Positions 993 to 48,704 of a stretch of 64,000 bases of DNA are shown piece by piece. The DNA is from an uncultured bacterium (GTDB lineage: Bacteria > Fidelibacterota > UBA2242), in assembly GCA_964576275.1 (NCBI GenBank), contig CAZNUN010000008.1, positions 32,441-96,440 on the forward strand, given 5' to 3'. Made by a program: the position numbers and the translations under genes. The notes beneath the pieces are model-generated. The model was not told the DNA's origin and ran no database searches. It saw nothing but the letters and a program-made list of their open reading frames with translations. Numbering within the stretch: the first letter of the stretch is position 1; every line of letters begins with the position of its first letter.

Positions 993-995
993 ATT

Positions 996-2531: not shown

Positions 2532-2532
2532 G

Positions 2533-18862: not shown

Positions 18863-19654
18863 TTATATAAGCCAACTATAATATTTTTTACCACGCCAAT
18901 TTTGAATTGTAATAGATATTCCTTCTTTATCCTTTATGTAATTCCCTTTAAAGTCTCTCAAAATATCCTCAATATTTTTAAAGTCATCTTCAGAATTGTA
19001 ATAAAAATATCGGGCAGGCATATCCCAATAATGACCTTGAGGTTCTTTTGGATATGGTATCTCTCCATATTGAGGGAATTCAAATTCATCAATATTTAGT
19101 ACTTGCTTTAAAGTATCCAAAAATATACTTGCCAATGACGAATCTCTAAAAGTACTCCCAAACAGATAAACGAATGAATTTTGAGGATAACGCCAGAATA
19201 AAGATATGATAGGTTTTGTACTATTAGTAGAATCGTCAGATACCGATATTGATGAATCTGTCACATAGATACTATAGTTATCAATAAAATTATCTCCAAT
19301 CAGTTTTAATGAGTAGGTTTTATCAGACAATGGCAAATGAATTCTTGACCCGGCCGGACCCAAAGCAGTCAAACAAACATTTGGTATAATTATCCCCAAA
19401 ATATCTATTTCTATTTTATTATTTGTAATTTCACAATCCGTGTAAATACAATAATTACAACAACCGTATATTTTTTCTGTTTCTAAAAATAAATATATTT
19501 CGGGATCGCTTTCTAAATCTGATTGTTCATAATCTTCAGATACTTTAAATAATATTCTTCCTTCAATAGGTAATAAATCACTGTTATCGTCAAAAAAGCC
19601 ACAGTTGATTAATCCTAAAAAGGTTATAAGGAGAAAGATTGTTCTGTAGTTCAT
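18863..19654 (-). CDS. Hypothetical lipoprotein in an AT-rich islet
   Basis: Signal peptide with 'LINCGFF'. N/I/Y/K-rich composition, unlike the rest of the window. No recognisable family. Confidence 0.4.
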   Translation of the reverse strand: MNYRTIFLLITFLGLINCGFFDDNSDLLPIEGRILFKVSEDYEQSDLESDPEIYLFLETEKIYGCCNYCIYTDCEITNNKIEIDILGIIIPNVCLTALGPAGSRIHLPLSDKTYSLKLIGDNFIDNYSIYVTDSSISVSDDSTNSTKPIISLFWRYPQNSFVYLFGSTFRDSSLASIFLDTLKQVLNIDEFEFPQYGEIPYPKEPQGHYWDMPARYFYYNSEDDFKNIEDILRDFKGNYIKDKEGISITIQNWRGKKYYSWLI

Positions 19655-19699: not shown

Positions 19700-22162
19700 T
19701 TACCTCGCCAACACCATCTTTTTTACCTGAACATAATCGCCGGCAGTTAATTTGTAGAAGTAAATCCCGCTGGCGACGTTGTTGCCATGCGAGTCTCGGC
19801 CGTTCCAGATCAGGTGATAACGACCGGTTGGCTGGTGATTGTCCGCGAGAGTCGCAATTTTTTGTCCGAGTAGATTGTAAATCTCGAGCCTGACGTGGGA
19901 ATTCTGTGGCAATTCAAACTCAATGGTCGTCAGCGGATTGAAGGGATTGGGAAAATTCTGTCTGACTTGAAAAGTTTTAGGTTTTTGAGAATCATCAGGT
20001 TTCTCGATGATCTGAAATTCGCCATGATAGAGATTATCCGGTGAATTTTCCATAAAAAACGGCTGACTGGCCTTCATGTCCATTATCCCATCATACCATT
20101 GCGGCAGAGTCGGCGGCGTTTCACATGCTAACATCTCACGCCAGGCTTCGTCGGTCAGACGATTGGCGATTGGCTGAATGAATTCATAATATGAGAAGAT
20201 CGCCCCGCGCGTTAGGCGAAGCGTACCGCCTTCATTGATGATGACATTGATTTCCAGAGGATAACCGACGCCTTCCTCCAGACACTGATCCGAATTGGAG
20301 TCGGTATGCACATCGGCGACGACCGCCATGTCATCGCTGTCATAGTGCCAGGGATCCTCACCTTCGGAGACCAATTTTTGCATGACTTTGCCAAAGCAAT
20401 AAATGTTGGAGTATTCCTCATCTGTAAGTGGTGTATTCTCCAGTTCCTTGATCGAAACATCCCGTAAGAAAAGCAGGAGAGATTCAAAAAGCACAAGTTT
20501 ATCTTGAAATTTTTCAGTTAATATGTCCCTTGTAAGCAGTCCGTCCATTGTATAGCGCGTCAGGCTTGCCAGCCGGGCGTAAAGATGCGGATTAGGTTCC
20601 ACGTAACTTTTCGGCGGTCCGGGAGTGATACAGCAGGGCGTCATGCTTTGCTTGGCGTAGAGAATCGTATCGTGCCGTAATTCCGCCCAGGAAGCCAGAG
20701 CTGTCAGGAGTTCTTTGTCCATCCAGGCGATAGTCTGCATGAAAAACGGGTAGCCTTCGCCTTTTTCATATAGTAATGGCATCAGGCAATAGAGCCAGTT
20801 CCAGTATAAATTTTGTGCCCATTCGGCAGGTGAAATAGACGCGAATTCGGTCTTGAATTCGGTAATTTTTTCAGGATAATTCGGACAGGCTGTCTCGTTA
20901 TAAAGCGAATCCAGCAAATCGTAAGCCCGATCCGAGCCGAGAATCGTCATTATATCCAATCCTTTGGGGAAAAGACGCTGACCGACTTCAGGGTCGATAA
21001 GATGCGCGAACATATATGAATCGGGAATGAAACGCTGACCCATCAGCCTGAATCCTTTGTAGGTAGTAAAAGAGCCGTAAATCCAGTTCGGTATTTTCGA
21101 TTCCGGCAATTTTTGAGCTTCCGTCATAAAGGCGTCAAGCAAAGCCGAATTGGCAAGGCTATCGGCGGTAAGCGATAGAAAATTGGTACCGTAAATCTGT
21201 TCGGCGATAGATTTATAATCTGTAATATTGGGATCATCGGTTTTGCCGACGAAAAAGACAGTGGGTTCATAGATCATTTTCCATAAATCCAACAGAGAAG
21301 TCCCATCTGCTTCCAGATTATAGAGCATTTGAGTAAGCAACAGCGCCTGGAGGGTGTGTCTCCTCGCCAAGTCACCGAAATTTTCCGGCTCCATGGTGAA
21401 AATCGTCCAGCCTTGCCACATCATGGCTTTGAAGTAAGCCGTCAGCGTGTCATTCGTGGTGTAATGTCCGCGCGGGATGAATTGACAATAATCCAGTAAA
21501 TTGAATGGACCTAAGATGGGCGGAGTGTTAAATCCGTCATGATTGGCGATTAAAGTCAATTCCGAATCCACAAGCGCCGCAACCGGTTCTGGAACGATAA
21601 AATCATTGCCTTTCAATAATTTCTGCGATACGCACAGAAATGCTAGATTGCGCCGTAACGTCTCTTTAATTTCCGGTTCGGTTGCTGTATCATATTGCGG
21701 TTGGGTGGCGTCAATCAAAGTCTGGATTAAAAGTTCCAGAGCCGGTACGAATTTTTGAATTTCGATTTCGGCCAGAATCTTATCATAAAGAACATGATAA
21801 ATGTGCAGAACCGCGTCGGTAGTTACAAAAAGCGGCGTGCCTTCCCAGGTGCAGTCGTTGTAAATATCATATAACTGCTTGAACTGACTTCTCCGGACCG
21901 TGAAGTGGTTTTGAAGTAATAGCGCTGAGTCCACCGCACTGAATCCATAGAAGTAAGAAAAATTTTCAACGTTACTGAAATCGGGTTCGACGGTAAAAAG
22001 CGGTACGTTGGGAGTAAAATCGGCAGGATATGGCTGGTAAGTTCCAAAGTCGGTTTGAACATCTTCGGAAATGTTGGCAATCATCTGGAACTGAGCCTGC
22101 AACCCGGAAAAACAAAGAGCGAAGCATAGAACGAGTTTGAAAAATTCGTTAAAACGCTTCAT
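19700..22162 (-). CDS. Large secreted protein with a C-terminal T9SS sorting domain (CTD/Por_Secre_tail); last gene of the long minus-strand array
   Basis: The C-terminus 'FPNPFNPLTTIEFELPQNSHVRLEIYNLLGQKIATL...SGIYFYKLTAGDYVQVKKMVLAR' is a canonical T9SS CTD. The track ORF starts at 22201; the start was trimmed to ATG 22162 (MKRFNEF), with 'AAGGAGG' 7 nt upstream. Signal peptide follows. The ~700-aa body has no family I can name. Confidence 0.6.
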   Translation of the reverse strand: MKRFNEFFKLVLCFALCFSGLQAQFQMIANISEDVQTDFGTYQPYPADFTPNVPLFTVEPDFSNVENFSYFYGFSAVDSALLLQNHFTVRRSQFKQLYDIYNDCTWEGTPLFVTTDAVLHIYHVLYDKILAEIEIQKFVPALELLIQTLIDATQPQYDTATEPEIKETLRRNLAFLCVSQKLLKGNDFIVPEPVAALVDSELTLIANHDGFNTPPILGPFNLLDYCQFIPRGHYTTNDTLTAYFKAMMWQGWTIFTMEPENFGDLARRHTLQALLLTQMLYNLEADGTSLLDLWKMIYEPTVFFVGKTDDPNITDYKSIAEQIYGTNFLSLTADSLANSALLDAFMTEAQKLPESKIPNWIYGSFTTYKGFRLMGQRFIPDSYMFAHLIDPEVGQRLFPKGLDIMTILGSDRAYDLLDSLYNETACPNYPEKITEFKTEFASISPAEWAQNLYWNWLYCLMPLLYEKGEGYPFFMQTIAWMDKELLTALASWAELRHDTILYAKQSMTPCCITPGPPKSYVEPNPHLYARLASLTRYTMDGLLTRDILTEKFQDKLVLFESLLLFLRDVSIKELENTPLTDEEYSNIYCFGKVMQKLVSEGEDPWHYDSDDMAVVADVHTDSNSDQCLEEGVGYPLEINVIINEGGTLRLTRGAIFSYYEFIQPIANRLTDEAWREMLACETPPTLPQWYDGIMDMKASQPFFMENSPDNLYHGEFQIIEKPDDSQKPKTFQVRQNFPNPFNPLTTIEFELPQNSHVRLEIYNLLGQKIATLADNHQPTGRYHLIWNGRDSHGNNVASGIYFYKLTAGDYVQVKKMVLAR

Positions 22163-22219: not shown

Positions 22220-24007
22220 TTACCAATTCATCTCGAAACCCAGCGTCCAGCCGTTGGTATTCATGATATCACCATTCGATCGGATGAACAATTTGGCGCC
22301 GGACGGATGTTCGTAAATCATGCCGAAGCGAACGGTGTTCGTGCGGGTAAAAGTTTTCGGCGGATTAGAATCGTATTTTTCGTAGCGATTGGTTTCCGGG
22401 TCATCAACGGTTAAAACCCCATTTACCCAATAACGATCGACAATGTTGGGATAGAGCAGATCGCCATGACTGTTATCCTCGACCAGACTGAGACTTATAT
22501 CGGTGCCGAGTAAGGCAAAGAAGCCCTTAGCCAGATGAGCTTTTACGCCGATTGGCACCATGAGATTCCAGGCATTGGTTTCAGTTGAATAGGAATATTG
22601 TTTAGTGTATGTGTCGAGGTATCGGTATGTCCCGGCGCTGTAAAGTGAATATTCCGTGAACGAATTGGAGTAATAATCCGAACTTTCCTCGAAATCGGCC
22701 TGCGACCATTGCCGGGAAATCTGTAATCCTCCGAACAGCGTCCAGTCATTTTCCAGCGCGTAGATCAATGAAGTCAGAAATTTCCACTGGCTGATCGTCT
22801 CGTCACCGGAACCTTCCAGGTTGAATTCAGCGGCGCTGTTTTCGGTGCAACGCCGGAATTCGTAGGTATTAGTGGCAATCCAGTAGTCATAAGTCCGGTC
22901 GCTGAAAGTGGTATCGTCAGTAGCGTATCGGGTGGTGATATCCTGATTTTTACTCGAAAAAGAAAAGAAGGAGCGCAAAATGAGATTTGAATTCATTTTT
23001 TTCTCGAATGTCAGCGTCAGGTATGGCTTCACTCCGGAAGTTTTATACATGTAATTGCTGTTCATAGTGTGTTCGCTGATGTTGTAGTAAGCCGTATTGG
23101 TCGCCGTTTCCGAGAACGAATCCGAAGTGTCCTGTGAAATTTCGGATTCCTTGCCGGAACCGAAAAACACTCCGGCGAAGAAACCGTAAGTCGTTTTATC
23201 GTCGGGATGGTTTAGAATCCCGGCGCCCAGGTCAAAATGCCGGCCGTTGATTTTCATATCTTCGTCGTTCAGAATTCCATAAGACGAATGTGGATAGGTC
23301 GCCCATTGCGAATTGTACAGATAGCCGTCGCGGTGAAAAATATAATGGCCGATGTGGAAACCGAGGTCGGTTTTTTCAGACAACCGGTAGCCGAGAGTGA
23401 ATTCGGATTGATTGGCGAGGACGATCTGTTGGTTTTCCTCCGTTTCGAGACGTTGCGGTTCAAGTTCAGCATAAGAGGCGTAGGAATTGGTAGCGATTGC
23501 ATCTTCCATCCAGCCACCGCTTCTCCACCAGGTTGAATTCCGGTAAGGACCATAGTCGAAGACTGAACGGTTGACAATCCCCAGACCCATGCGTTTATTC
23601 AATGGCAGAATCAGAGCCAGATTGTAAAGCGGCGCGATATTGATGTCCTGAACGCTGGTCTGACTGTACCACGATGGCGAAAGATAATAACTGTCTGTCA
23701 GAATCCCGGACGACAGCGGATTGAGCGAGGACGTGACACTGCTTTCCAGATTGAAGTCAATGTAAACAGTCTTCTGTTTTTCGCGCAGTATATAGGCCGG
23801 ATTCCAGTTCAGATCGCTGAACTTGTCCGGAACCATGCCACTGACTTCCGGCGCGAAAATCGCCATCTGCATAGTGCGGAATCCGATCGGTTCCATCAGA
23901 TAAGGAACTGAAGGTTGGCGCGTGACCGGATCGGGAACTGTTGCCAAAGCAATTCCGGTTAGCAGAATCAGAATAATCATCAAATCATATATTTTTTCAT
24001 TTTTCAT
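22220..24007 (-). CDS. Hypothetical outer-membrane beta-barrel-like protein
   Basis: Start trimmed to ATG 24007 (MKNEKIYDL), with 'AAAGGAG' 6 nt upstream. Signal/anchor peptide. Long run of alternating strands. C-terminus 'GWTLGFEMNW'. Confidence 0.4.
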   Translation of the reverse strand: MKNEKIYDLMIILILLTGIALATVPDPVTRQPSVPYLMEPIGFRTMQMAIFAPEVSGMVPDKFSDLNWNPAYILREKQKTVYIDFNLESSVTSSLNPLSSGILTDSYYLSPSWYSQTSVQDINIAPLYNLALILPLNKRMGLGIVNRSVFDYGPYRNSTWWRSGGWMEDAIATNSYASYAELEPQRLETEENQQIVLANQSEFTLGYRLSEKTDLGFHIGHYIFHRDGYLYNSQWATYPHSSYGILNDEDMKINGRHFDLGAGILNHPDDKTTYGFFAGVFFGSGKESEISQDTSDSFSETATNTAYYNISEHTMNSNYMYKTSGVKPYLTLTFEKKMNSNLILRSFFSFSSKNQDITTRYATDDTTFSDRTYDYWIATNTYEFRRCTENSAAEFNLEGSGDETISQWKFLTSLIYALENDWTLFGGLQISRQWSQADFEESSDYYSNSFTEYSLYSAGTYRYLDTYTKQYSYSTETNAWNLMVPIGVKAHLAKGFFALLGTDISLSLVEDNSHGDLLYPNIVDRYWVNGVLTVDDPETNRYEKYDSNPPKTFTRTNTVRFGMIYEHPSGAKLFIRSNGDIMNTNGWTLGFEMNW

Positions 24008-24017
24008 ATTTGCTCCT

Positions 24018-25274
24018 TTATGCAACTGGATTCATGATTTTTCCGATGAACAGGATCGTGCCGGAAGCCCGCTCGCGGATCGCCAAAATAAAGGGACGAT
24101 CAACGCGCATTACCGTAATATCTTCCGTGTCAGCCGAGACCGATTTGTATGTAACCTCGACGGATGCCGCCGCGGCGGCTTCGGTGCCTTCTTCGTCAAC
24201 TTCAATAAACGATTTATGTCTGACTTCGCTGATATACAATTCATCGCCATCTTGATTGATACGGCTGAAATCAGCCTGATCGTTAAATGCGATTCCCATA
24301 CCGAGTTCTGTCAGCGGATCATTTAGCACCCGGAACCACTCGAGTTTGAATCTCGGCAAATAAAGACTGACGTTTGTCGTGGATAAGTCTGCGCTCAGAT
24401 TATTCCATTTTTCATCGGTCAAGCCGCTTATCAACGAGTCTAAATCGTCGCTGGATCCCGGCAGGAGTACCGTCATGGCAAAAAATCCATCGTTATACGG
24501 CAGGTCGATTATCTGAAGTTCGTCAGTCTCAGCATAGTCGAAGTCACTACGGAGCGACATCATCTGGCAGTTCACTGTTTCGTCATTATTAAGATAAAAC
24601 GGAGCCTCCTTTGTGTGTTCTTCATTGAACTGATAGGTCCAGGTGCCCTTGAAATAAATGGCGTTGAGCAGAAACATAACCGTGTTGGGATTGATCGGTT
24701 TCCCAATGAGTTGTTTAATGAGTCCTTCGGTTTGTTCTGATATCCAGGCATTCATTGTATCAACGGCGGCGTCCTGATTGAAATCAAGTCCCCGAACAAC
24801 TGCATCGAAATACGTCTGGTTCGTTGCGATAAATGCCGGCAAGACCGAGAATTCGTTCCGGTACCAAATCGAGTTTGCGATCCGGAATTTGACTTGCGCA
24901 TCAAGCGACCTCAGTAAATTGATCAGGCTTTGATATGATTGGTTGATTTCATCTTCGATAAGATTTTCGAAACGAAGCGTTGAATGTATTGCCTCAAGAG
25001 TAGTGCCCGCCGCGCCGTTCGCGGTCATTCCTAAAGCCATCGAAACCGAAACTGGTGATATAAACAGATTGCTATCGCCGACCTCTTCCGATAATACTTT
25101 GAACAGATCGAATCCGAATGAGTTACTCGATTCGATCAGAGACTGTTCGGATTTGCTAAGGTTTCTTGGTAATTGTGGAATACCATCGGAGATCGGCCCC
25201 GTGACGTCCGAACAGCTTGTTATCAATGTCATTAATATGAATGACAGGTATATATTTCGTGAGGATTTTTCCAT
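24018..25274 (-). CDS. Serpin (serine-protease inhibitor) lipoprotein, paralog 1
   Basis: Hinge and shutter motifs: 'FIEVDEEGTEAAAAASVEV...MRVDRPFILAIRERASGTILFIGKIMNPVA'. Lipobox 'LITSC'. The track start is a TTG; the start was trimmed to ATG 25274 (MEKSS), with 'AAGGAG' 6 nt upstream. Confidence 0.8.
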   Translation of the reverse strand: MEKSSRNIYLSFILMTLITSCSDVTGPISDGIPQLPRNLSKSEQSLIESSNSFGFDLFKVLSEEVGDSNLFISPVSVSMALGMTANGAAGTTLEAIHSTLRFENLIEDEINQSYQSLINLLRSLDAQVKFRIANSIWYRNEFSVLPAFIATNQTYFDAVVRGLDFNQDAAVDTMNAWISEQTEGLIKQLIGKPINPNTVMFLLNAIYFKGTWTYQFNEEHTKEAPFYLNNDETVNCQMMSLRSDFDYAETDELQIIDLPYNDGFFAMTVLLPGSSDDLDSLISGLTDEKWNNLSADLSTTNVSLYLPRFKLEWFRVLNDPLTELGMGIAFNDQADFSRINQDGDELYISEVRHKSFIEVDEEGTEAAAAASVEVTYKSVSADTEDITVMRVDRPFILAIRERASGTILFIGKIMNPVA

Positions 25275-25287
25275 CTTTTTCTCCTTT

Positions 25288-26529
25288 TTACTCAGCAACT
25301 GGATTCATGATTTTTCCGATGAACAGGATCGTGCCGGTATTTTTCTCACGTAGAAAAAAGATAAACGGCCGATCGACAATAAAGTAAACTTCCTCTGTAC
25401 CAATGGATGTTATTTCAAAAGATATAGACGTTACGGCGGCGGCCTCAGTACCTTCTTCATTGACATCCACGAAAGTCTTATGTTTTATGTTACTGATAAA
25501 TAGATCGTAATCCGGATTGATTTTATCGAAATTCGCTTCGGATGGTGAAAAGGCTTTTTGCATACCCAGCGCTTTTAATGTTGGGATCAAACCGATATTA
25601 TATTCGACTTTAAATTTCGGTAAGAAAATATTGACTTCGGTTTCGGTCAGACCGTTTATCCAATCCATCCAATTGCCAGCAGTCATTGCTGCCGCAACAG
25701 AATCGACATCCACTCCGGAGTTTGGTAGAATGACAGTCATACTGAAGCCGATTTCACAGTAAGTCAGGTCGGCGATCTGGATCTGGTCATTCGCAAAATA
25801 ACCATGAGTGGCTTTATGCCTCATCATTTCACAATTTGTCTGACTGCCGTCTTTCCGGTAGAATGACGTTTCCTGGGTGTTTTCATCATCGAACTCATAC
25901 GTCCAGGTGCCTTTGAAGTAAATGGCATTGATCAGGAACATGACAGTATAAGGATCAATCGGCGGATCGACGATCGTTGGGATTTTCTCATGAGTTTTTT
26001 CGTTTACCCAGGCATTGATTACGTCAGCCGCGTCACTGCGATTGAAGTCCAACTCCTGAACCTCAGCGTCGAAATAAGTGGTATTGATTACTAAGAAATC
26101 ATTCAATACCGAAAATCCGCTGCGATACCAGATAGAGTTGGCGATCTCGAAAGTGACATCCGGGTCGGCGGTCGCAAGCAGATCAATCAGACTCTGATAG
26201 GACTGATTGATTTCCTCGGCAGTCAGATCGCCATATTCCAGCATGGAGTGCATTTCACTGCGGGTCTCGCCGTCCGCGCCGTTATAAGCCATACCGAGTG
26301 CCATCGAAACACTCAGTGGCGAAATGAAGATATTTTTATCGGTCTCGGAGGAAACGATTTGCCGGAATAACTTCAGACCGAAATTATTATCGGCTTCCGT
26401 CACCTTCTTTTCTATGGCGCTCAGCTCGCGGATCGGCTCTGGTTTATCACCGCCGGTGATTTTCTCAGGACAGCGGCTCAAAAAAAGAAGTGGAAGCACT
26501 GTCAGAACAATAATTTTTCTGTTTGTCAT
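25288..26529 (-). CDS. Serpin (serine-protease inhibitor), paralog 2
   Basis: 'FVDVNEEGTEAAAVTSISFEI...FIVDRPFIFFLREKNTGTILFIGKIMNPVAE'. Same C-terminus as paralog 1. Start trimmed to ATG 26529 (MTNRKIIVLTVLPLLFLSRC), with 'GAGG' 5 nt upstream. Confidence 0.8.
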   Translation of the reverse strand: MTNRKIIVLTVLPLLFLSRCPEKITGGDKPEPIRELSAIEKKVTEADNNFGLKLFRQIVSSETDKNIFISPLSVSMALGMAYNGADGETRSEMHSMLEYGDLTAEEINQSYQSLIDLLATADPDVTFEIANSIWYRSGFSVLNDFLVINTTYFDAEVQELDFNRSDAADVINAWVNEKTHEKIPTIVDPPIDPYTVMFLINAIYFKGTWTYEFDDENTQETSFYRKDGSQTNCEMMRHKATHGYFANDQIQIADLTYCEIGFSMTVILPNSGVDVDSVAAAMTAGNWMDWINGLTETEVNIFLPKFKVEYNIGLIPTLKALGMQKAFSPSEANFDKINPDYDLFISNIKHKTFVDVNEEGTEAAAVTSISFEITSIGTEEVYFIVDRPFIFFLREKNTGTILFIGKIMNPVAE

Positions 26530-26681
26530 AGAAACCTCATCATTTATTTCCGCAATACTTAAAAACGACAATTCATCTATGACAAATAGCATTCCAAAAT
26601 CTTCCGACGGAGAAAACCTGTCCGGGATAGACAAACTCTCAGATTTCTGAGACTAACGCCGAAAAATTGAGAGAAGCTGAA

Positions 26682-27745: not shown

Positions 27746-28723
27746 TTACTTAATTCCGTTGATTTCCTGTAGTTGTTTCTGGTAATAGTTGCGGAGCGAG
27801 TCCATTTGGGCTATATACGATGGCAGGTTGTTGGTTGGAATTTTTTGAAAAAGCGACAGGTAATCCGCCGTCGTTGATATTTGAGTAGTGATGGGAAGAG
27901 CGGCATTATCCGTCTGGGATAAGGCGTCTTTTCCTCCGTTGTTATATGTGGGTTCTGTCCAGGTTGTCCCGTCGGTCTGATCGCGATCGTTATTTTGCAG
28001 AGCGATTTCCCGGTTAACTGCTTCTCCGCTGAAGCCGGTCATTTCCAGATTCAGCTGGTTCAGCCTCTGACGCAGGTCTCTTTCGGCAATGGCGGCGGTG
28101 ATAATCATATCTATCTGCCGGATTTTATCGTCGAGAATTCGGATGACATCGGTGCGGATCGCGGCGCTGTGTTTGTATTTGGTTAACAGGGCGATGACGT
28201 TTTCGTATTTATTGGATAAAACCGGTTCGTTCGGCGTTGGCGGTCGGCTGGCGATAATTTGTCCTCGTTGCTCGATTAACTCAATCAGTTCGCGGGTGAG
28301 ATTTTGTCGTTGGCGCGGATCGGCGGTGTGATCGTACCGCTGCAGGATGGATTCGATGCGTGTTGAAATGAGGGTGTAATATTTATTGAAAATTAGATCT
28401 ACGGAAGTTTTTTGGGTAACTAATTTTGTTCTGATGTCAGTCATTTTGGAGCTGACTTCGGCTTTGCGGGCGGTTAGACGGGAGATTTTTCTGTTTGTAT
28501 TCCAGTTGGCGTTTTCCGCCGAGCCGAGTCGTAAAATTTGGGCATCGAGCGCGGCGATATCTTTTTCGAGTTGACTGTAAGACAAAGTCAATTCATGATA
28601 TTTACTCAGGGTTTGAGCGTACTGGACTCGGTAATAAGCAAGGCTGTCAGTAGAGGTCGCATTCAGCTTAATCGTCAGCAGAAAGATGAGCGCAATGGTC
28701 ACAAGGCATAGATGTTTATTCAT
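27746..28723 (-). CDS. Secreted coiled-coil protein, encoded immediately downstream of the two-component system
   Basis: Signal peptide 'LVTIALIFLLTIKLNA'. Long heptad-like Q/L/R/E-rich helices. No recognisable enzymatic motif. Confidence 0.4.
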   Translation of the reverse strand: MNKHLCLVTIALIFLLTIKLNATSTDSLAYYRVQYAQTLSKYHELTLSYSQLEKDIAALDAQILRLGSAENANWNTNRKISRLTARKAEVSSKMTDIRTKLVTQKTSVDLIFNKYYTLISTRIESILQRYDHTADPRQRQNLTRELIELIEQRGQIIASRPPTPNEPVLSNKYENVIALLTKYKHSAAIRTDVIRILDDKIRQIDMIITAAIAERDLRQRLNQLNLEMTGFSGEAVNREIALQNNDRDQTDGTTWTEPTYNNGGKDALSQTDNAALPITTQISTTADYLSLFQKIPTNNLPSYIAQMDSLRNYYQKQLQEINGIK

Positions 28724-30092
28724 ATTCTTCCGGTTTAATGCTATACTTTTCGATTTTATAATAGAGAGTACCGGGCTTGATTTTCAGCTGTTCGGCGGCG
28801 CGCTGTTTAACGCCATGCTGGTCGTGCATAGCCTTAACGATCATTTCGCGTTCAATCCGCCCGATGTGAGTGGAAAAATCGCGATCCGGCGTTTTTTCTG
28901 CGCCTGAGGGAGTGGATGATTTTTCTGGTAAATCACTAAAGTCGAACAGTGTTTCCGAGAAAATATCCTCTTCTACGAAAACCAGCGCCCGCTCGATGAA
29001 ATTTTCCAGTTCGCGCACGTTGCCCGGCCAGGAGTAGGCGGTAAGGCGGTCAATGACGCCGGATTCGATTTGCGGCGTCTTACGTCCCTGTCGGGTGGCT
29101 TTAAGTTTCAGCAAATTATCAATAAGGAGTGGAATATCTGACCGACGTTCCCGCAAGGGTGGAATTGACAACGGAATGACATTTATACGATAGTACAAAT
29201 CGGAACGAAACTGGCCGTCCTTGATCTGTTGTTCCAGGTTTTTATTGGTAGCGCAGATCAGACGGAAATTGCTATGGATGAATTTTTCTCCGCCGACCCG
29301 CTGGAATTGTTTGGTCTGCAGAACGCGCAGAAGTTTAACCTGTAAACCGGCGGACATATCGCCGATCTCATCAAGAAACAGCGTGCCGCCGTGACTCTGT
29401 TCGAATTTTCCGGCGTGCGTTTTATGTGCACCGGTGAAAGCGCCTTTTTCATGCCCGAAGAGTTCGCTTTCCAGGATTGTTTCGGTCAGCGCACCGCAAT
29501 TGACTGCCAGAAACGGACCTTTATGCTGTTGACTTGCCTGATGAATCAGGCGAGCTACCAGTTCTTTACCGACACCGCTTTCACCAGTAATCAGCACCGG
29601 GCTGTCGCTCGGAGCGATTTTAGCGATTATCTGGCGGATTTGCCGGATGGCGGGCGAGTCGCCGATCAATACGGGAAGATCGGATTCTTGGTTAAGGGGT
29701 TTCTGTTGGTTCAGCCAACGGTGGTAGAGAATCTCAACTTTGCGGCGCAGTTCGGCCAGCGCGAAGGGCTTAGTGATAAAATCTTCGGCGCCGCATTTCA
29801 TGGCGTTCACCGCCAGGTCAACCGTGGCAAAGGCGGTTATCAGAACTATTGTGGTGGCAGGCTGCACCTCTTTGATTTTTTTCATAAGAGCCAGCCCGTC
29901 CATTCCCGGCATTTTTATATCGGTGATGATTAATTCAAAGGATTTATTCTGGATCGTTTCCCAGGCTTGTTGACCGTCACTGACCGTTGAGACTGCGTAA
30001 CCTTCTTTGACGAGCGAATCCCGCAGACCTTCACGCATGGATTGGTTGTCTTCGACGATTAGGATGCGATAGTTAACTGGCAGTGGATTCAT
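28716..30092 (-). CDS. Sigma54-dependent response regulator (NtrC/AtoC family: REC + AAA+ + Fis-type HTH)
   Basis: 'ILIVEDNQSMREG...ELIITDIKMPGMDGL' (REC), 'GESGVGKELVARLIH' (Walker A), 'ESELFGHEKGAFTGA' (GAFTGA sigma54-contact loop) and a C-terminal HTH. Confidence 0.85.
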   Translation of the reverse strand: MNPLPVNYRILIVEDNQSMREGLRDSLVKEGYAVSTVSDGQQAWETIQNKSFELIITDIKMPGMDGLALMKKIKEVQPATTIVLITAFATVDLAVNAMKCGAEDFITKPFALAELRRKVEILYHRWLNQQKPLNQESDLPVLIGDSPAIRQIRQIIAKIAPSDSPVLITGESGVGKELVARLIHQASQQHKGPFLAVNCGALTETILESELFGHEKGAFTGAHKTHAGKFEQSHGGTLFLDEIGDMSAGLQVKLLRVLQTKQFQRVGGEKFIHSNFRLICATNKNLEQQIKDGQFRSDLYYRINVIPLSIPPLRERRSDIPLLIDNLLKLKATRQGRKTPQIESGVIDRLTAYSWPGNVRELENFIERALVFVEEDIFSETLFDFSDLPEKSSTPSGAEKTPDRDFSTHIGRIEREMIVKAMHDQHGVKQRAAEQLKIKPGTLYYKIEKYSIKPEEYE

Positions 30093-31519
30093 ATTTTCTC
30101 CGGGAGAATTAGGACAAATTCCGTGCCGCTTTGATCCGAGTGATCTAAATAGAGACGCCCGCCATGTTGTTCGACGAGAGATTTAGCGATCGATAATCCC
30201 AGACCGACGCCGTCCGCTTTGGTGCTGAAAAAAGCCTCAAAAATTTGAGACCGGATTTCCGGGGAAATCGGCGATCCACTGTTGCGGAAGTGGATAGCGA
30301 TATGATCTGTATGATTGACGATCTCGACCTTGACCTGCGGTGTCAGTCGGTTGGCTTCGAGGCCGTTGCGGATCAGATTAGCCAGACAGGAACGGAGTTT
30401 TCCAGGGTTGGCTTTGACCTGCGCCCGGCCGCTGATATTGATTGCGGCTTCCGGGAAATCGCGTTTTAATTCAAGGCTGACTTCATTTAAAAGATCGCTT
30501 AGTTCGCAAGTGATCAGATTGGCTTCCATAGGCCGGGCATAGGATAGGAAAGATTCGACGATCAGCGCCAGTCGGTCAACTTCGCGGGCAATTGCCGCCG
30601 CATATTTGGCGGCGGGGGTTGCTTCGCCGGTTTCTTCGAGCAATAGTTCGGAATTGATTTTCATGCCGCCCAGTGGATTACGGATTTCATGGGCGACCGA
30701 TGCTAAAAATTGTTTGTTTTGTTTCTCGCGCTGACTCAGCTCGGCGTGCATTTTCTGCATTGTCTGGCCCAGAAAGCCGATTTCGTCCCGGCGGGGATTA
30801 GGAACTGAAAGATCGCTGCGTCCCTGACCGATAGCCATAGCGTAGTCAGTCAGGTTTTCGAGCGGCCGGGTCAGCGTGCGCGCCAGAACCATAACCATCC
30901 CGATGCTGATGATCAAAACGACCGCCGTAAGGCTGAAAATCTGACGGCGTAATTTGGCGGTAATTCCTAAAAATTCGGCGCTGGCATCCAGTCCGAGGAT
31001 TACCGTTTGTTCGGGATTCCGCAGTACCTCAGAAAAAACCGATTTATAGAATTGTCCGTTCCGATCAACAAAGAGCGGCGAGGTTATGATTTGGCCAGCG
31101 GCGGCGGATGAGATTTCATGAGTATGCAGTCGGGATGATAGTATGGCGCTTTCGGAATTTCCGGCAACTGCCAGCAAGCCTTTATGAGGAGCAATCAAAT
31201 ACAAGGCCTGGGCGTCGAAAATTTCAGCCTGACCATTTAACCAACGCTGTAAAGAATCGCGGACGGAGTTTAGCGCCGGATATGAAGCTAACAGATTGAC
31301 GAGATTCGGATCGGCGTGAGAACAGATCAACTGGATATTTTGTTCCAATTGTCTGGTTAATTGGTTTTCAAGCGCCTGGCGGGTTTGCCAGTAAACAGGA
31401 TAAGTGATCGCCAGGGTGACGAAAATTACCAGCAATCCGGTAAAGATCGCAAACTTCCAGGCCAGTCTGACCGGTGGTTGATTTGGTTTGGCGGATTCGC
31501 CTAAGGGATAATTATTCAT
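30089..31519 (-). CDS. Sensor histidine kinase (2 TM with a periplasmic sensor, HisKA + HATPase_c)
   Basis: 'LASVAHEIRNPLGGM' H-box. The C-terminal part 'GVGLGLSIAKSLVEQHGGRLYL' has G-box-like motifs. ATGA overlap with the regulator. Confidence 0.8.
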   Translation of the reverse strand: MNNYPLGESAKPNQPPVRLAWKFAIFTGLLVIFVTLAITYPVYWQTRQALENQLTRQLEQNIQLICSHADPNLVNLLASYPALNSVRDSLQRWLNGQAEIFDAQALYLIAPHKGLLAVAGNSESAILSSRLHTHEISSAAAGQIITSPLFVDRNGQFYKSVFSEVLRNPEQTVILGLDASAEFLGITAKLRRQIFSLTAVVLIISIGMVMVLARTLTRPLENLTDYAMAIGQGRSDLSVPNPRRDEIGFLGQTMQKMHAELSQREKQNKQFLASVAHEIRNPLGGMKINSELLLEETGEATPAAKYAAAIAREVDRLALIVESFLSYARPMEANLITCELSDLLNEVSLELKRDFPEAAINISGRAQVKANPGKLRSCLANLIRNGLEANRLTPQVKVEIVNHTDHIAIHFRNSGSPISPEIRSQIFEAFFSTKADGVGLGLSIAKSLVEQHGGRLYLDHSDQSGTEFVLILPEKI

Positions 31520-31533
31520 CGGATTTTTAGTAG

Positions 31534-33189
31534 TTAAATATTAGGATTGTCTCCACACACCTGCCTGAAAATACGCAGAAAATTACCTCCCATGATCTTG
31601 GCGATTTCTTCCTCAGTATAGCCTTCATTCAGCAAAGCGCCGGTCAATCTCGGAAAATAGGATACATCCTGTAGATCACCCGGCCAGACTTCGATCCCGT
31701 CAAAATCCGAACCGATGCCGACATAATCAACGCCAACCAGGTTAACGATATAATTGATATGGTTGATGACGTCATTCAGAGAGGCATTGCTTGAACCGTT
31801 TAAAAAGTAAGGGTAGAAGCAGGCGCCGATCAATCCTCCTCCGGCGGCAATTGCCCGTATCTGATCGTCGCTCAAATTGCGGTAATGGTTACAGAGCGCC
31901 CGGGCATTTGAATGGGACGCTATGATCGGATTTTTGGAGGTTGCCAGGATATCGGAAATGGTCTGGATGCCGACATGTGAGACGTCAATTATCATGCCGA
32001 GTGAGTCCATCGCGGCTATTACTTTCCGTCCGAAGGCATTCAAGCCACCGGCGCGGGTTCCGCGGGCTTCATCTTTGGCGGAAACAGCCCAGGACGTGCT
32101 GTTATTCCAGGTGATGGTCATGCCGCGCACGCCCAGATCGTAGAAATATTTTAATTTATCGACATCGTTTTCAATATAATGACCACCTTCCAGGAAGATT
32201 ATTCCGGCGATTCGATCATCATTTACCGCACTGTCCAGGGCGGTATAATTTCTGATATGTTGAATTGTTTCTGGATTGGCAGTAAACTCGGCGGTAAGGC
32301 GGTTATATTGATTGATGGCCGTCTGATAAGCGCCGTTTGAAGCGCTGTCCCAGATGGCGAAAACCTGGATGTCCAATCCGCCATCCTGGAGGCGGGGAAT
32401 ATCGGTATGTAAATATGAATGACGGTCTGCAAGGTGATAATTGGCATAGGCAGATTTAGCCATTTGCTCGGAAATATCGTTGTGCATGTCGGCAACGCGG
32501 ACATAGGAATGCACAGATTGCAGAAAGGTTGTAAAATAGGTATGCTCGGAAGTCGTAATCAGCGTATCGGAATGGTAGCCGAATTTCGAGCTGACGATCC
32601 GCAGATCGGAGACGTTCGGTTTGGATAAGAACCGGGCTTGGTCGTCGGTTGGGCTGATATCGCCTAACCCGCCGGTTAGACTGCCGTCCAGTTGGATCAT
32701 TTTACGCGTGATTTGTTTTTGACCGGTTCGAATAGTATAAAAGTAAACTCCAGCGCTTCCTTGGCTTTTCCAGGTTGTCGAATAAGAACCTGCGGGGAGA
32801 TATTTGTGACAGCGATCGATTGTCTGACCCAGCAGATTGGTGACCGTGATCTCAATCGCGCCGTCACTTGGTAAATAAAAGGGCAGATTTGTCACCGGAT
32901 TAAATGGATTGGGGTAATTCTGCAGAACGCGGAATTCATCCGGCAAGTTAAACTCGTCACTTTTCATCTTGTTTGGAAAGGACAGGCTCCAGTCGCCATT
33001 GCCGTCGGTAAAGGTTGAATCGCAGGAGCCCGATTCGGTATCGCAGATCGTGATCCGAACGTTGCGAATGGGAGCATCGGTGTGGAAATCGGAAACCCGG
33101 CCGCCATAGGTTGCCGACCAGGCGGATAAAGCCGGGATGGCAATCAAGGCGCCCTGTAAAATTCGTCGGATTATATTTTGACCGGTCAT
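31534..33189 (-). CDS. Membrane dipeptidase (peptidase M19, renal-dipeptidase family) with an internal, N-terminally placed T9SS-CTD-like/FlgD-Ig domain
   Basis: M19: 'VADMHNDISEQ', 'GLDIQVFAIW', 'GIIFLEGGHYIEN', 'VSHVGIQTI', 'ASHSNARALCNHYRNLSDDQIR' and 'GIGSDFDGI'. Upstream of it (aa ~85-170): 'LQNYPNPFNPVTNLPFYLPSDGAIEITVTNLLGQTI...GVYFYTIRTGQKQITRKMIQL', which is CTD-like but not C-terminal. Signal peptide. Confidence 0.7.
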   Translation of the reverse strand: MTGQNIIRRILQGALIAIPALSAWSATYGGRVSDFHTDAPIRNVRITICDTESGSCDSTFTDGNGDWSLSFPNKMKSDEFNLPDEFRVLQNYPNPFNPVTNLPFYLPSDGAIEITVTNLLGQTIDRCHKYLPAGSYSTTWKSQGSAGVYFYTIRTGQKQITRKMIQLDGSLTGGLGDISPTDDQARFLSKPNVSDLRIVSSKFGYHSDTLITTSEHTYFTTFLQSVHSYVRVADMHNDISEQMAKSAYANYHLADRHSYLHTDIPRLQDGGLDIQVFAIWDSASNGAYQTAINQYNRLTAEFTANPETIQHIRNYTALDSAVNDDRIAGIIFLEGGHYIENDVDKLKYFYDLGVRGMTITWNNSTSWAVSAKDEARGTRAGGLNAFGRKVIAAMDSLGMIIDVSHVGIQTISDILATSKNPIIASHSNARALCNHYRNLSDDQIRAIAAGGGLIGACFYPYFLNGSSNASLNDVINHINYIVNLVGVDYVGIGSDFDGIEVWPGDLQDVSYFPRLTGALLNEGYTEEEIAKIMGGNFLRIFRQVCGDNPNI

Positions 33190-41010: not shown

Positions 41011-41700
41011 TTAAAATTCATTCAGAAACCTTTCCCAGAATTTCTTCTTTTCATAAATCGGTATTTCGTTGTGGTTCTCACGGTCATATTCCCATTGGGG
41101 CGGATTGTTGATGATATACCGTCGAATTCTGTTCAATTCCTGTTCATTGCGGATAACATGTTCGTAATAATTGCGTTGCCAGACGGAATTGCCGGGTGTA
41201 TGGCGCAGGACATTGATACGTTTGGTAACGGCTGATTTAAACGATCGAACAATTGTAGGAATAGACATCGCGACTGGTCTTTGAAAACGTTCTACCGTAG
41301 TAGGGGCACAGCGAGCTGTGCCCATTGCATTTTCATTGGTATTATCACGGACACGGCAATCATTTATCATTTTTCCAATTTGGGCACGGCCCGCCGTGCC
41401 CCTACGATCATCATTAATAAAAAATATTATATGGACATGGTTTGGCATTATGACATGTTTATCGATGGCGATATATTCTCTTATCGATTCGGTTCTTTTT
41501 ATTTCCTCTTCAACAATCCTGCCCATTTCATTCAATACCATTTCACCATCTACAATCTCACCCAATAACGGCTGCCGGTCGTGGGTGCAAATCGTCACGA
41601 AATACGCCCCCGCCCGGGAATAATCAAATCCCTGCAAACGGATGGAACGACGCTTTATTCTTTTCAAGTCGATGATGATTTCCTTTCCCGGGCAATTCAT
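41011..41700 (-). CDS. REP-associated tyrosine transposase (RAYT; IS200/IS605 TnpA-like HuH enzyme) with a ~37-aa in-frame insertion encoded by two REP copies
   Basis: 'RLQGFDYSRAGAYFVTICTHDRQ' (RAYT N-terminus), 'MPNHVHIIFF' (HuH) and 'NSVWQRNYYEHVIRNEQELNRIRRYIINNP' (catalytic Tyr region). The HuH-to-Tyr spacing is ~82 aa. The segment 'RRGTAGRAQIGK...AMGTARCAPTT' is the translation of REP copies 3 and 2. Confidence 0.75.
   Translation of the reverse strand: MNCPGKEIIIDLKRIKRRSIRLQGFDYSRAGAYFVTICTHDRQPLLGEIVDGEMVLNEMGRIVEEEIKRTESIREYIAIDKHVIMPNHVHIIFFINDDRRGTAGRAQIGKMINDCRVRDNTNENAMGTARCAPTTVERFQRPVAMSIPTIVRSFKSAVTKRINVLRHTPGNSVWQRNYYEHVIRNEQELNRIRRYIINNPPQWEYDRENHNEIPIYEKKKFWERFLNEF
41300..41323 (-). 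repeat. REP element copy 2 (inverted orientation; 'gtagGGGCACAGcgagCTGTGCCC'), inside the RAYT ORF
   Basis: Same core with G>A / C>T compensatory changes that preserve the stem. Coordinates +/-2. Confidence 0.6.
41358..41408 (+). repeat. REP element copy 3 ('aatcatttatcatttttccaatttGGGCACGGcccgCCGTGCCCctac'), inside the RAYT ORF
   Basis: About 45/48 identical to copy 1, including the 5' AT-rich arm. Coordinates +/-2. Confidence 0.6.
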
Positions 41701-41795: not shown

Positions 41796-42779
41796 TTATC
41801 GACACTCATTAATCAGAAAATCCCGATCGATAATGATTTTTCGGCTGGCTGTTCGCCAGAAGGCGCCCAAAATGCCACTGCCATTTTCGACATTGGAATA
41901 AACCTGAAGCGGAGCATTGAATCCGCTCAGTTCATCGGGCTGAACTTCCCAGCGCTGAATATTATACAGAGCTTCGTTCAATGAGTAAACGTAAAATCTC
42001 AAATAAAAGGAAGTGAACTGGCTCAGATCACCGATTTTATATTTATCTTCATCATAACAAAATTTAATCTCTTTTAACATAGTATTTATTTTATACCCGG
42101 TCGATGTATCTTGACGGGGATAACCGGAGGAAGATGAGTATACTCCATCGCCTTCATCAGTAAAATCTGAATGTATCTGTAAACTCCAATATTTTCCAGT
42201 ATCATTAATCGCTACAAAAGATAGTAATGGTAAATATCCCTTGGCTCCATCTGCCTGAGTCCATGAAAAGTTTAAGTCTTCAGAAGCGTTCCTGATTGTA
42301 TCTGGTAAATCTATAAACTCCACGGAATCCGGCACCACCGTTTCCGCATAGAGACTGTCGTAATCCGGATAATAGGCCGATAATTCCCAATGCTGTCCCG
42401 GATACACATCCACATTTGGAAATTGGTAGTAGTAGTAGTGAGTACAAAAATCCCAAGTAGATTCATACTCTTTAACGGAATCTTCCATAACAGGTAAGTA
42501 ATTTCCATTGACTGCAATTTTTACTGTCGCTCCTGAAACACTCCAATAATCAGGGTATTTTTTATAATCAGAATATGAATACTCATTCTCATACTCATAC
42601 TCACTTAATTCATTCCACTTCGAGACAAATACTTTCAAAGAATCTTCAAAAGGACTGATTAAGCAATTCACAGATAAATTCTTACTAATATCAGTATCTG
42701 GCCCGGTTGGTGGTCCGGCGGGACAGCGCCATAATAAAGGCAGTAGAAAAATTACGAAAAATAATCCGCGTTTTACCAT
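41796..42779 (-). CDS. Secreted protein encoded downstream of the TonB-dependent receptor (DUF4249-like position)
   Basis: Signal peptide. Start 1 nt after the receptor stop. Same gene-pair architecture as 45540-48642. Confidence 0.4.
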   Translation of the reverse strand: MVKRGLFFVIFLLPLLWRCPAGPPTGPDTDISKNLSVNCLISPFEDSLKVFVSKWNELSEYEYENEYSYSDYKKYPDYWSVSGATVKIAVNGNYLPVMEDSVKEYESTWDFCTHYYYYQFPNVDVYPGQHWELSAYYPDYDSLYAETVVPDSVEFIDLPDTIRNASEDLNFSWTQADGAKGYLPLLSFVAINDTGKYWSLQIHSDFTDEGDGVYSSSSGYPRQDTSTGYKINTMLKEIKFCYDEDKYKIGDLSQFTSFYLRFYVYSLNEALYNIQRWEVQPDELSGFNAPLQVYSNVENGSGILGAFWRTASRKIIIDRDFLINECR

Positions 42780-45043: not shown

Positions 45044-45046
45044 AGC

Positions 45047-45511
45047 CTATTTGAAGTAATACTTAATTCCTACACCAGTGTTCAGAAAACTAATTTCCTC
45101 TATTCCATCACCTACCCTTAAACTTGGTCCAAACTCCCCAAAAAGGCTCAATTTCTTATGAACTTTATATTCAACGCCGAGGATTATTCCCAGAAATAAC
45201 TCATCAATAAAGCCATGATAGGTAATATCCGGACCAATATAAGTTGATAAAGACTCATCCGAAGTTAATTTGACCTGAAAACTCAGACTTGACACTGTGG
45301 AATAAATAAAACCACCATCACTAAATTCCAGATACATTGAAAACCGTGTTCGAATTCTATCGGATACTCCATAAGAAATACCAATTTGTGGAATTATCTG
45401 GGCTTTGACAGTCAAACCTATTCGCCCTTTTTCCTGGGCATTGGTTGAACTATGCAGAGTCACTAGAATCGTAAAAATAGCCCATAATTGAAGAATCCGC
45501 TTACTTTTCAT
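45047..45511 (-). CDS. Small outer-membrane beta-barrel protein (OmpW/OmpA-barrel-like, 8 strands)
   Basis: Start trimmed to ATG 45511 (MKSKRILQLWAIFTILVTLHSSTNAQ), with 'GGGAG' 8 nt upstream. C-terminus 'GVGIKYYFK'. Confidence 0.45.
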   Translation of the reverse strand: MKSKRILQLWAIFTILVTLHSSTNAQEKGRIGLTVKAQIIPQIGISYGVSDRIRTRFSMYLEFSDGGFIYSTVSSLSFQVKLTSDESLSTYIGPDITYHGFIDELFLGIILGVEYKVHKKLSLFGEFGPSLRVGDGIEEISFLNTGVGIKYYFK

Positions 45512-45539
45512 TTTAAAATCTCCCTTATTTATAAAGTAA

Positions 45540-46325
45540 TCATTCAATCACAAAGAAATCAACCGAATCAACAGTGGATGATCCGAAAAATCCATATCCA
45601 CCTCTGATTCCACACGACGTTCCGGCATTTAAATAGTAATTTTTATAGTTTTCATCTACGGCGATTACATGGATGGTGTATCGCCTATAATTTTCAACGT
45701 AATCGAAGTTGAAAGAGTGTGAGAGTTCATAGCGAATGTAGGTGCTGTCGATTTCAATATAGTCTTCATAAGAATAAAAATTTTTTTTATATCGGATAGA
45801 TTGATGCGATGAAGTCTTAATTGGCGGTTCATAGATAATAATTTTATAAGGGGGTAGTGTCGATTTTTTGTCCCATTTAATTCGCAAAGGTGTTTTGTCT
45901 TGCAGGATGGCGCCGTCTATTGGTTCGATGATGTTCACGACTTCAGGTATCTCGGTTTCACCGGTAATTTCTCCAATATCAGTCTTAATTATCAATGTAT
46001 AGCGTTCTCCAGGAATTACATTCAATTTTTTTTCATAATCAATATACCTGGGCGATTTATAAAAATCTTCAACGTAGAACAATTTAACCGATTGTCCTCC
46101 GCTGGTAATTGTAATTTCGGCATTATTGACGAATACATCTGCAGGTTCTAAATCTTCATTAACATTGTCCGTTGAATAATAAATGTAAACCTCTTGTTGA
46201 TCCCAGCAAGGACTTATAAATGCTTTTATGCTAAGTTCTTTCTGAAAAACCGATTCGGTCGGATTATCACAATGAAGCAGAAATAACAGTGATAAAATTA
46301 GATTAATAAATGGTGTTTTCTTCAT
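45540..46325 (-). CDS. Lipoprotein encoded downstream of the second TonB-dependent receptor (DUF4249-like position)
   Basis: Start trimmed to ATG 46325 (MKKTPFINLILSLLFLLHC, lipobox). AT-rich. Confidence 0.4.
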   Translation of the reverse strand: MKKTPFINLILSLLFLLHCDNPTESVFQKELSIKAFISPCWDQQEVYIYYSTDNVNEDLEPADVFVNNAEITITSGGQSVKLFYVEDFYKSPRYIDYEKKLNVIPGERYTLIIKTDIGEITGETEIPEVVNIIEPIDGAILQDKTPLRIKWDKKSTLPPYKIIIYEPPIKTSSHQSIRYKKNFYSYEDYIEIDSTYIRYELSHSFNFDYVENYRRYTIHVIAVDENYKNYYLNAGTSCGIRGGYGFFGSSTVDSVDFFVIE

Positions 46326-46338
46326 ATTTTTACCATCG

Positions 46339-48642: not shown

Positions 48643-48704
48643 ACCTTCAAAATATTCAGGACTGGCTATCTTAATAGACAGCCAGTCCTTTTTTAATCAA
48701 GTCA

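Follow-up and report, generated by a model that had tools for sequence, protein, structure and literature searches.

The window analysed here, a stretch of 64,000 nucleotides of DNA from an uncultured bacterium, carries on its minus strand two adjacent genes coding for proteins of the serpin family, here called serpin B and serpin A in the order in which they are read. Both genes lie within 24018-26529 and are arranged head-to-tail, with 13 nt between the stop codon of serpin B and the start codon of serpin A.

26529..25288, minus strand: serpin B, 413 amino acids, ATG at 26529 with GAGG five bases before it
25274..24018, minus strand: serpin A, 418 amino acids, ATG at 25274 preceded by AAGGAG

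Comparison with Pfam indicated that both proteins match PF00079 over model positions 2-370 of 370 (E 4e-115 for serpin A and 7e-118 for serpin B), with scores of 385 and 394 bits where the cut-off is 27, and this family match is far beyond chance. Serpins A and B showed 47% identity over 413 residues (E 4e-130) and have the C-terminus GTILFIGKIMNPVA in common. The top match in the PDB was miropin of Tannerella forsythia (5NCS), with which serpin A shared 39.7% identity (E 5e-79, 269 bits). Orthologues are labelled 'serpin family protein' in public databases, and at least 7976 relatives were recovered at E<=1e-30. The original prediction of two tandem serpin paralogues of miropin type was borne out: its coordinates were correct to the base, both proteins are full-length PF00079 members, miropin was the best PDB match, and the strings that it quoted (the hinges EEGTEAAAA and EEGTEAAAV, the C-terminus and the two distal loops) were all present.

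Related loci, designated L001 to L018, were used for comparison; the closest genome, L001, is a metagenome-assembled genome (MAG) of Candidatus Neomarinimicrobiota from a sludge digester, and its gene order was identical to that of the window. Longer TTG-initiated open reading frames present in a program-made list were rejected as real genes. One of these, of 448 amino acids, had been considered as an alternative form of serpin B, but the stretch upstream of the ATG changes mostly non-synonymously relative to L001 and the N-terminal extension would precede the signal peptide, which makes no sense; the same stretch is conserved as DNA between the two genomes.

Serpins A and B were aligned with about 140 bacterial relatives and with human alpha1-antitrypsin, the sequence of which is identical to PDB 2QUG chain A. 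The 53 positions checked in this alignment are conserved serpin positions, reportedly those listed by Irving et al. 2000. Exact matches to alpha1-antitrypsin were found at 48 of these positions in serpin A and at 51 in serpin B, and the remaining positions conformed to the consensus of the bacterial clade (e.g. L61, C218) or carried a conservative change (K290R in serpin A). In alpha1-antitrypsin numbering, the shutter residues S53, S56, N186 and H334 and the breach residues W194 and E342 were kept in both serpins, K290 of the breach being Arg in serpin A, and G344, T345, E346, A347 and A348 were present in both. The hinge from P17 to P9 is EEGTEAAAA in serpin A and EEGTEAAAV in serpin B, P15 being Gly, P14 Thr and P12-P9 Ala or Val, and the consensus of inhibitory hinges over the same positions is ExGTEAAAA (PMC8233489).

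A serpin fold may also serve in binding, as a chaperone or in storage, in which case the loop differences described below would reflect neutral drift. Such non-inhibitory serpins exist, breach and shutter deviate in part of the bacterial Group U serpins (PMC8233489), and the reactive-centre loop, though no other 12-residue stretch of the protein varies more (2.42 bits, the mean being 1.45), is barely ahead of other surface loops, the next of which reached 2.34 bits. Against a non-inhibitory function stand the textbook inhibitory hinge, the shutter and breach residues, which are intact in both serpins and also in the about 140 relatives, and the canonical distance from P17 to the predicted P1, which is index 16 from P17. 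Since the hinge fits the consensus and the shutter and breach are intact, none of the signs of a non-inhibitory protein that the original prediction had named was found, P12-P9 being neither bulky nor charged; a non-inhibitory role is therefore very improbable, and serpins A and B are almost certainly conventional serpins of the bacterial miropin-related clade, of inhibitory type.

The reactive-centre loops, which were said earlier to be divergent, were compared in a register anchored at the hinge and counted from the P17 glutamate.

24090..24194, minus strand: reactive-centre loop of serpin A, from P17 to s1C, EEGTEAAAAASVEVTYK followed by SVSADTEDITVMRVDRPF
25363..25458, minus strand: reactive-centre loop of serpin B, EEGTEAAAVTSISFEIT followed by SIGTEEVYFIVDRPF

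The residues on the two sides of the canonical P1-P1' bond, and the offset from P17 to the Pro of xPF, were as follows.

Serpin A: V-T-Y-K, then S-V-S-A-D-T-E-D..., offset 33
Serpin B: F-E-I-T, then S-I-G-T-E-E..., offset 30
Miropin: M-V-K-T, then S-S-P-S-T-T..., offset 31
Alpha1-antitrypsin: A-I-P-M, then S-I-P-P-E-V..., offset 27

From P9 to P1 serpins A and B agree at only one of nine positions, in line with the divergence that had been claimed. Definition of P1-P1' by alignment, which had been proposed as a check, gave a predicted Lys377–Ser378 bond in serpin A (P1 codon 24144-24146, P2 Tyr) and a predicted Thr374–Ser375 bond in serpin B (P1 codon 25408-25410, P2 Ile), and the P-prime side of serpin A is long and acidic. 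Among 142 relatives the canonical P1 and P1' columns were mostly Thr (82) and Ser (108), and the most variable columns of the loop were P3 and P2, at about 3.15 bits. The Ile-Thr-Ser of serpin B is thus typical of the family, and a canonical P1 Lys that follows an aromatic residue, as in serpin A, is unusual. The canonical P1 of miropin is Thr369, but Kgp cuts that serpin at Lys368-Thr, one position upstream (10.1101/2025.09.05.674453), so that in this clade the residue counted as 'P2' may often act as the effective P1, and the P1 residues given here for serpins A and B are to be read as predicted ones. The bait of serpin A would suit trypsin-like or Lys-specific enzymes, and possibly chymotrypsin- or subtilisin-like enzymes at the Tyr, and that of serpin B would suit enzymes tolerant of small or aliphatic residues. 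Because the two baits differ, the pair would cover different proteases, and the suggestion of different targets for the two proteins is a reasonable one.

A rough neighbour-joining tree, constructed with the loop masked and with midpoint rooting, indicated that serpins A and B are old paralogues, each with its own orthologues in L001, L012 and L014. Serpin A was 82% identical to its orthologue in L001 and 68-82% identical to its orthologues overall, and the identities of serpin B were 80% (L001), 55% (L012) and 53% (L014). The loop of serpin A was nearly invariant, 2 of 22 residues differing from L001, while in serpin B 9 of 19 loop residues differed, compared with a rate of 0.18 in the background (binomial P=0.003, the region having been chosen in advance), and the loop was among the two most diverged segments of that protein. 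Three lineages, including L001, keep the motif V-G-[C/A]-T-S-[A/V]-G-P in serpin B and the window has F-E-I-T-S-I-G-T, which indicates that the loop was remodelled on the window's own branch. The change consists of many point substitutions, the flanking codons showing only synonymous change; a double frameshift and a gene-conversion donor within the window were considered as its origin and rejected. In distant orthologues of serpin A the Y-K is replaced by F-E and the P-prime side is shortened. Synonymous divergence from L001 (dS) was 0.68 for serpin A and 1.80 for serpin B, and since synonymous sites are saturated at a dS of 1.8 no formal claim of positive selection is made for the serpin B loop.

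Tandem sets of serpins were also found in other lineages: five consecutive genes in a Zixibacteria MAG (L002), three in a WOR-3 MAG (L006), two each in two unclassified MAGs (L003 and L005), and two in L018, one on each side of its copy of the barrel gene p601 described below. All of the tandem copies keep the inhibitory hinge, and the distal loop differs in both sequence and length. The copies of L002 clustered together in the tree, as did the pair of L018 and the copies of L003, L005 and L006; judged from these groupings, duplication was independent in at least four lineages, giving sets of two to five copies. The array of L002 (8174-14278) lies beside two Ser/Thr kinases with TPR repeats, and that of L006 (3325-7993) beside a divergent operon of a 176-amino-acid open reading frame, a zf-HC2 anti-sigma-type protein and a Big_2 protein; the open reading frames of L003 and L005 match the L006 layout in a comparison of sizes only. 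The serpin arrays of these other phyla adjoin envelope-signalling genes, and a protease gene was looked for beside them and none was found. No report on serpins of Marinimicrobia or on tandem prokaryotic serpins was found in the literature searched.

The serpin genes of the window lie within a cluster of genes on the same strand, together with a sigma54-type promoter element and a palindrome.

30089..31519, minus strand: sensor histidine kinase, 47% identical to the L012 orthologue (HAMP, HisKA, HATPase_c)
28716..30092, minus strand: sigma54-dependent response regulator with EKGAFTGA, 61% identical to the L012 orthologue
27746..28723, minus strand: p325, a secreted protein encoded between the activator and p350, 31-33% identical to its orthologues in L012 and L014
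26682..27734, minus strand: p350, an orphan 16-stranded outer-membrane beta-barrel (predicted fold)
26638..26651, minus strand: perfect palindrome CTCAGAAATCTGAG, 41 nt upstream of the promoter element, a candidate activator site
26582..26596, minus strand: sigma54-type -24/-12 element TGGAATGCTATTTGT, TGGAAT-N5-TTGT, 52 nt upstream of the serpin B ATG
22220..24007, minus strand: p601, an orphan large outer-membrane beta-barrel (predicted fold) with its own AGGAG site
19700..22162, minus strand: DUF3160 protein (Pfam DUF3160, E 1e-187) with a C-terminal sorting domain (Por_Secre_tail) of the type IX secretion system (T9SS)

The promoter element was identified by comparing the equivalent gaps of six loci. 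In the window this gap, of 152 nt before serpin B, is about 90% identical to that of L001, while the dS of the flanking genes is 0.7-1.8. The element was present in all six gaps, as TGGAAT-N5-TTGT in the window and L001, TGGAAC-N5-TTGT in L012 and L014, TGGCAC-N5-TTGT in L016 (TGGCACATTCCTTGT) and TGGCAT-N5-TTGT in L018. Its -24 element and its spacing fit sigma54, and the -12 element ends in T (TTGT) in all lineages as against the canonical TTGC. The pattern TGGMAY-N5-TTGT has two matches in the window versus 0.56 expected; the second, at 48828-48842 on the minus strand, falls inside a DUF3103 open reading frame (48705-49886) and is probably due to chance, given that expectation. In every locus with the two-component system the promoter pattern occurs once and at the equivalent place, and in L017, which is without the two-component system, its sole match is 6 kb from p601 and inside another gene.

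The palindrome is unique in the window, versus 0.01 occurrences expected. It was exact at the equivalent site in L012, L014 and L018, carried one mismatch in L001 and was represented by two half-site repeats in L016. Promoter and palindrome are thus kept in four independent lineages in which p350 is only about 35% identical, and the palindrome is proposed as a putative binding site of the sigma54 activator. The gaps between serpin B, serpin A and p601 are operon-like, of 10-13 nt with ribosome-binding sites, the p601 start lying 10 nt past the serpin A stop codon. From this arrangement we infer that the kinase and regulator of the cluster would activate the sigma54 promoter and so drive serpin B, serpin A, p601 and the DUF3160 gene. 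The literature searched held no report of dedicated two-component or sigma54 control of a prokaryotic serpin, and an Rfam scan of the whole window gave no match.

The order histidine kinase, sigma54 regulator, p325-like gene, p350-like gene, gap, variable genes, p601-like gene and T9SS-domain protein recurs in L012, L014, L016 and L018. The L012 regulator orthologue is annotated Response_reg, Sigma54_activat and HTH_8, and orthologues in the related loci of the module likewise carry the Sigma54_activat annotation. The serpin-containing cluster was seen in L001, L012, L014 and L018, its order being shared by lineages of the Marinimicrobia, and the variable genes of the module are serpins in most loci; the DUF3160 gene adjoins the cluster in L001, L014 and L018 as well. 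At L017, p601 adjoins an M48 peptidase. In L016 (7503-9853) the place of the serpins is taken by a 622-amino-acid unannotated secreted protein and a 139-amino-acid lipoprotein, followed by a 1042-amino-acid CarboxypepD_reg protein with a sorting domain. The two adjacent serpin genes differ strongly in dS relative to L001, where the pair corresponds to 619-3129, and between the window and L014 the identities were 74-81% for serpin A, p601 and the DUF3160 protein and 33-53% for serpin B, p350 and p325; these uneven values suggest mosaic histories within the cluster, by recombination or transfer.

The original prediction had placed the serpins between outer-membrane barrels, and the predicted folds of p350 and p601 are both barrels. 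As the barrel matches of the two proteins were of the generic outer-membrane type, they confirm this description and no specific function follows from them. Long strands were predicted for p601, with roughly 190 residues at its N-terminus lying outside the main barrel. No Pfam or NCBIfam match was obtained for p601, p350 or p325, and p325, with only a weak coiled-coil match, reads as a possible coiled-coil protein. The families of p350 and p601 are tiny, with 17 and 24 database clusters respectively. The DUF3160 protein apparently is a co-transcribed T9SS cargo; it had no solved relative in a PDB sequence search and no known protease signature, and the literature searched contained a single passing mention of DUF3160. 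The locus had also been called T9SS-rich, which was supported in part: three open reading frames have a T9SS sorting-domain match, and one of these is the PorU-like protein described below.

Both serpins begin with a hydrophobic leader, MTNRKIIVLTVLPLLFLSRC in serpin B, ending in ...FLSRC followed by PE, with Cys20 as a possible lipidation site, and MEKSSRNIYLSFILMTLITSC in serpin A, ending in ...LITSC followed by SD, with Cys21 as the cysteine. In 105 of 122 relatives a Cys lies ahead of helix A by 18-32 residues (mostly 27-30), and it is usually preceded by S, N, Q or G and followed by S and then D. Neither serpin matches the T9SS sorting domain, the serpin domain extending to the last residues. 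Export and lipid anchoring through the Cys, covered by the 'lipoprotein/secreted' of the original prediction, is plausible for both, and miropin has been shown experimentally to be a surface-exposed lipoprotein (10.1101/2025.09.05.674453). A 263-amino-acid open reading frame without a family match, located 45 nt downstream of the DUF3160 gene (18863-19654, minus strand), also has a lipoprotein-type leader (...FLGLINC followed by GFFDD), with an unusual Asn before the Cys as in several serpin A orthologues.

Lipoprotein-type leaders occur also on other genes behind the sigma54 promoter in the related loci; nearly every variable gene located between promoter and p601 has one, and p601 is always downstream of the promoter. 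These observations leave room for the idea that the module is an undescribed inducible envelope system in which p601, and perhaps p350, would act as a dedicated outer-membrane translocon or docking partner displaying the co-transcribed lipoproteins, serpins included, at the cell surface. Such a module would be a functional analogue of Slam, unrelated to it in sequence, as the orphan barrels showed no sequence match to the Slam barrel (DUF560) or to TPR families; we consider this idea decidedly doubtful.

The account that we favour, at a probability of roughly 0.8, is that serpins A and B are inhibitory, exported proteins with different baits, induced from a sigma54 operon together with a barrel and a T9SS cargo. 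A Sec leader would export each serpin, and the conserved Cys would probably anchor it by lipid to the outer membrane. A protease cutting the loop at P1-P1' would then be trapped covalently as the loop enters beta-sheet A, in the suicide mechanism of serpins. The operon of serpin B, serpin A, p601 and the DUF3160 gene would be fired by the sigma54 promoter, presumably through the adjacent kinase and regulator, and the serpin genes would then be neither constitutive nor stand-alone. The most likely role would be inducible protection of the envelope, or interference with the proteases of other organisms, in a protein-degrading anaerobic community.

Several observations weigh against parts of this account. 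L016 carries the whole module without serpins, so the function of the module does not depend on them and they are frequent but not obligatory passengers. A scan with the canonical TGGCAC-N5-TTGCW, allowing two mismatches, gave 16 matches versus 25 expected, none of them near the serpins; the element before serpin B was missed because its -12 ends in T, not C. No rpoN gene was found in the window. P1 is not certain from the sequence, the clade varying most at P3 and P2 with mostly Thr-Ser at the canonical P1-P1'. The lipobox is atypical, position -1 being S in serpin A and R in serpin B, of which R is rare. Finally, none of the loci examined encodes a candidate target protease within the cluster or next to it.

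Only three proteases were identified in the window, namely FtsH, an M19 dipeptidase and a 1635-amino-acid C25-family protein, and no serine protease gene was present in it.

58556-63463, plus strand: C25-family protein, 1635 amino acids, with CARDB, FlgD_ig and a C-terminal sorting domain

This C25 protein bears on the possibility that the serpins mainly restrain the cell's own T9SS-secreted surface proteases, the C25 enzyme among them, which had been named earlier as a target to be examined. A T9SS cargo is apparently co-transcribed with the serpins, the C25-family protein carries a sorting domain, and miropin inhibits a C25 enzyme via a loop Lys, serpin A having Lys at P1. The best NCBIfam match of the C25 protein, however, was the T9SS sortase PorU, at 337 bits, below the equivalog cut-off of 420 bits; the match covers the first ~750 of 1095 model positions, and the C-terminal half is long and different. 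The gene lies 32 kb from the serpins in an unrelated neighbourhood, no protease gene was linked to serpins in more than 10 loci, and the DUF3160 cargo is without a protease signature or a solved relative. The C25 protein is thus probably part of the T9SS secretion machinery and not a gingipain-type target, which weakens the proposal that it is inhibited by the serpins, and we regard self-protection as unlikely.

The M19 dipeptidase gene (31534-33189, minus strand) ends with its stop codon 14 nt before the histidine kinase gene. Its product has a signal peptide, a CarboxypepD_reg-like stretch, a sorting-domain-like segment at residues 92-165 (TIGR04183, E 2e-10) and the M19 domain at 228-543. 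The segment is internal, and the T9SS sorting domain is normally C-terminal.

Of the two roles named for the preferred account, interference would mean that surface serpins inactivate the proteases of neighbours, protecting the cell and depriving competitors of peptides. This was proposed for miropin, the closest characterised relative, against Kgp of Porphyromonas gingivalis (10.1101/2025.09.05.674453). The repeated and independent expansion of paralogues with different loops agrees with it, as do the fast remodelling of the serpin B loop on one branch, such as an arms-race interface would show, the apparent control of expression by a sensor kinase and the origin of the closest genome from a sludge digester. 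The argument is nevertheless purely inferential: the two closest lineages hardly differ in the loop of serpin A, which accords with a stable target, and with synonymous sites saturated positive selection is not formally demonstrable. Interference competition is on balance a serious possibility, a little short of even.

Comparison with known systems showed that the serpins of the window resemble miropin, of Group T, in the EEGTEAAA hinge, the extended P-prime side and the Cys-containing N-terminal leader, the assignment to Group T resting on closest similarity to miropin. Serpin B shares with it Thr-Ser at the canonical P1-P1', and the host of miropin belongs to the same broad FCB (Fibrobacterota-Chlorobiota-Bacteroidota) group and also has a T9SS. 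Serine proteases and the C25 protease Kgp are inhibited covalently by miropin through a loop Lys (10.1101/2025.09.05.674453). In the multi-site loop of miropin this reactive Lys is one residue upstream of the canonical P1 (V-K-T-S), whereas serpin A carries its Lys at the canonical P1 itself (T-Y-K-S); serpin B, with Ile-Thr at indices 15 and 16, has no basic residue. The organisms compared here are free-living and of digester type, while that of miropin is host-associated. We know of no report that miropin belongs to a tandem set or is controlled by sigma54.

Siropins 1 and 2 of Eubacterium siraeum are two paralogous inhibitory serpins with 60% identity overall and 48% in the loop (PMC5127057), and they resemble the present pair in being paralogues of one bacterium with divergent loops. 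They differ in that the host is a Firmicute, one of the two is predicted to be intracellular, and no operon, outer-membrane setting or dedicated regulator is given for them (PMC5127057). A conserved scaffold with fast-changing loops is also found in the tandem serpin clusters of eukaryotes, such as those of SERPINA in rodents and others and those of ticks (PMC12646145, PMC13116602); the eukaryotic genes are individually transcribed, whereas the copies described here are in bacterial operons and have lipoprotein-like leaders. The likeness to NtrC-family sigma54 regulons lies in the adjacent histidine kinase, the GAFTGA activator, TGG-N9-TTG at -24/-12 spacing and the palindrome about 50 nt upstream, and the differences lie in TTGT in place of TTGC and in serpins, an orphan barrel and a T9SS cargo as the controlled genes, which make up no known sigma54 regulon.

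Serpins are sparsely distributed among bacteria, only a few of them have been characterised, and little is known of their natural targets or regulation (PMC8233489). While the serpins of the window are themselves conventional and current understanding is not overturned by the locus, three points around them are new: their putative, conserved control by sigma54 and a two-component system, their association with two orphan barrels and a T9SS cargo, and the repeated tandem expansions. The literature searched contains no description of this regulatory and outer-membrane setting. The two-component system and sigma54 promoter offer a concrete regulatory hypothesis for bacterial serpins, and new envelope functions may be sought in the two orphan barrels that accompany the serpins. 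The pair itself, one scaffold with two baits of which one is near-frozen and the other remodelled, is a natural set of inhibitors useful for studies of specificity. Tandem expansion with loop diversification, well known in animals, recurs in uncultivated bacterial phyla.

Elsewhere in the window, the region at 41796-49886 on the minus strand carries, twice in succession, a TonB-dependent receptor-like gene (CarboxypepD_reg and Plug) paired with a DUF4249 gene, followed by the gene for the DUF3103 protein. The G+C content of this region is lower (0.37-0.43), and a fragment of an IS200-like transposase is located at 41011-41700.

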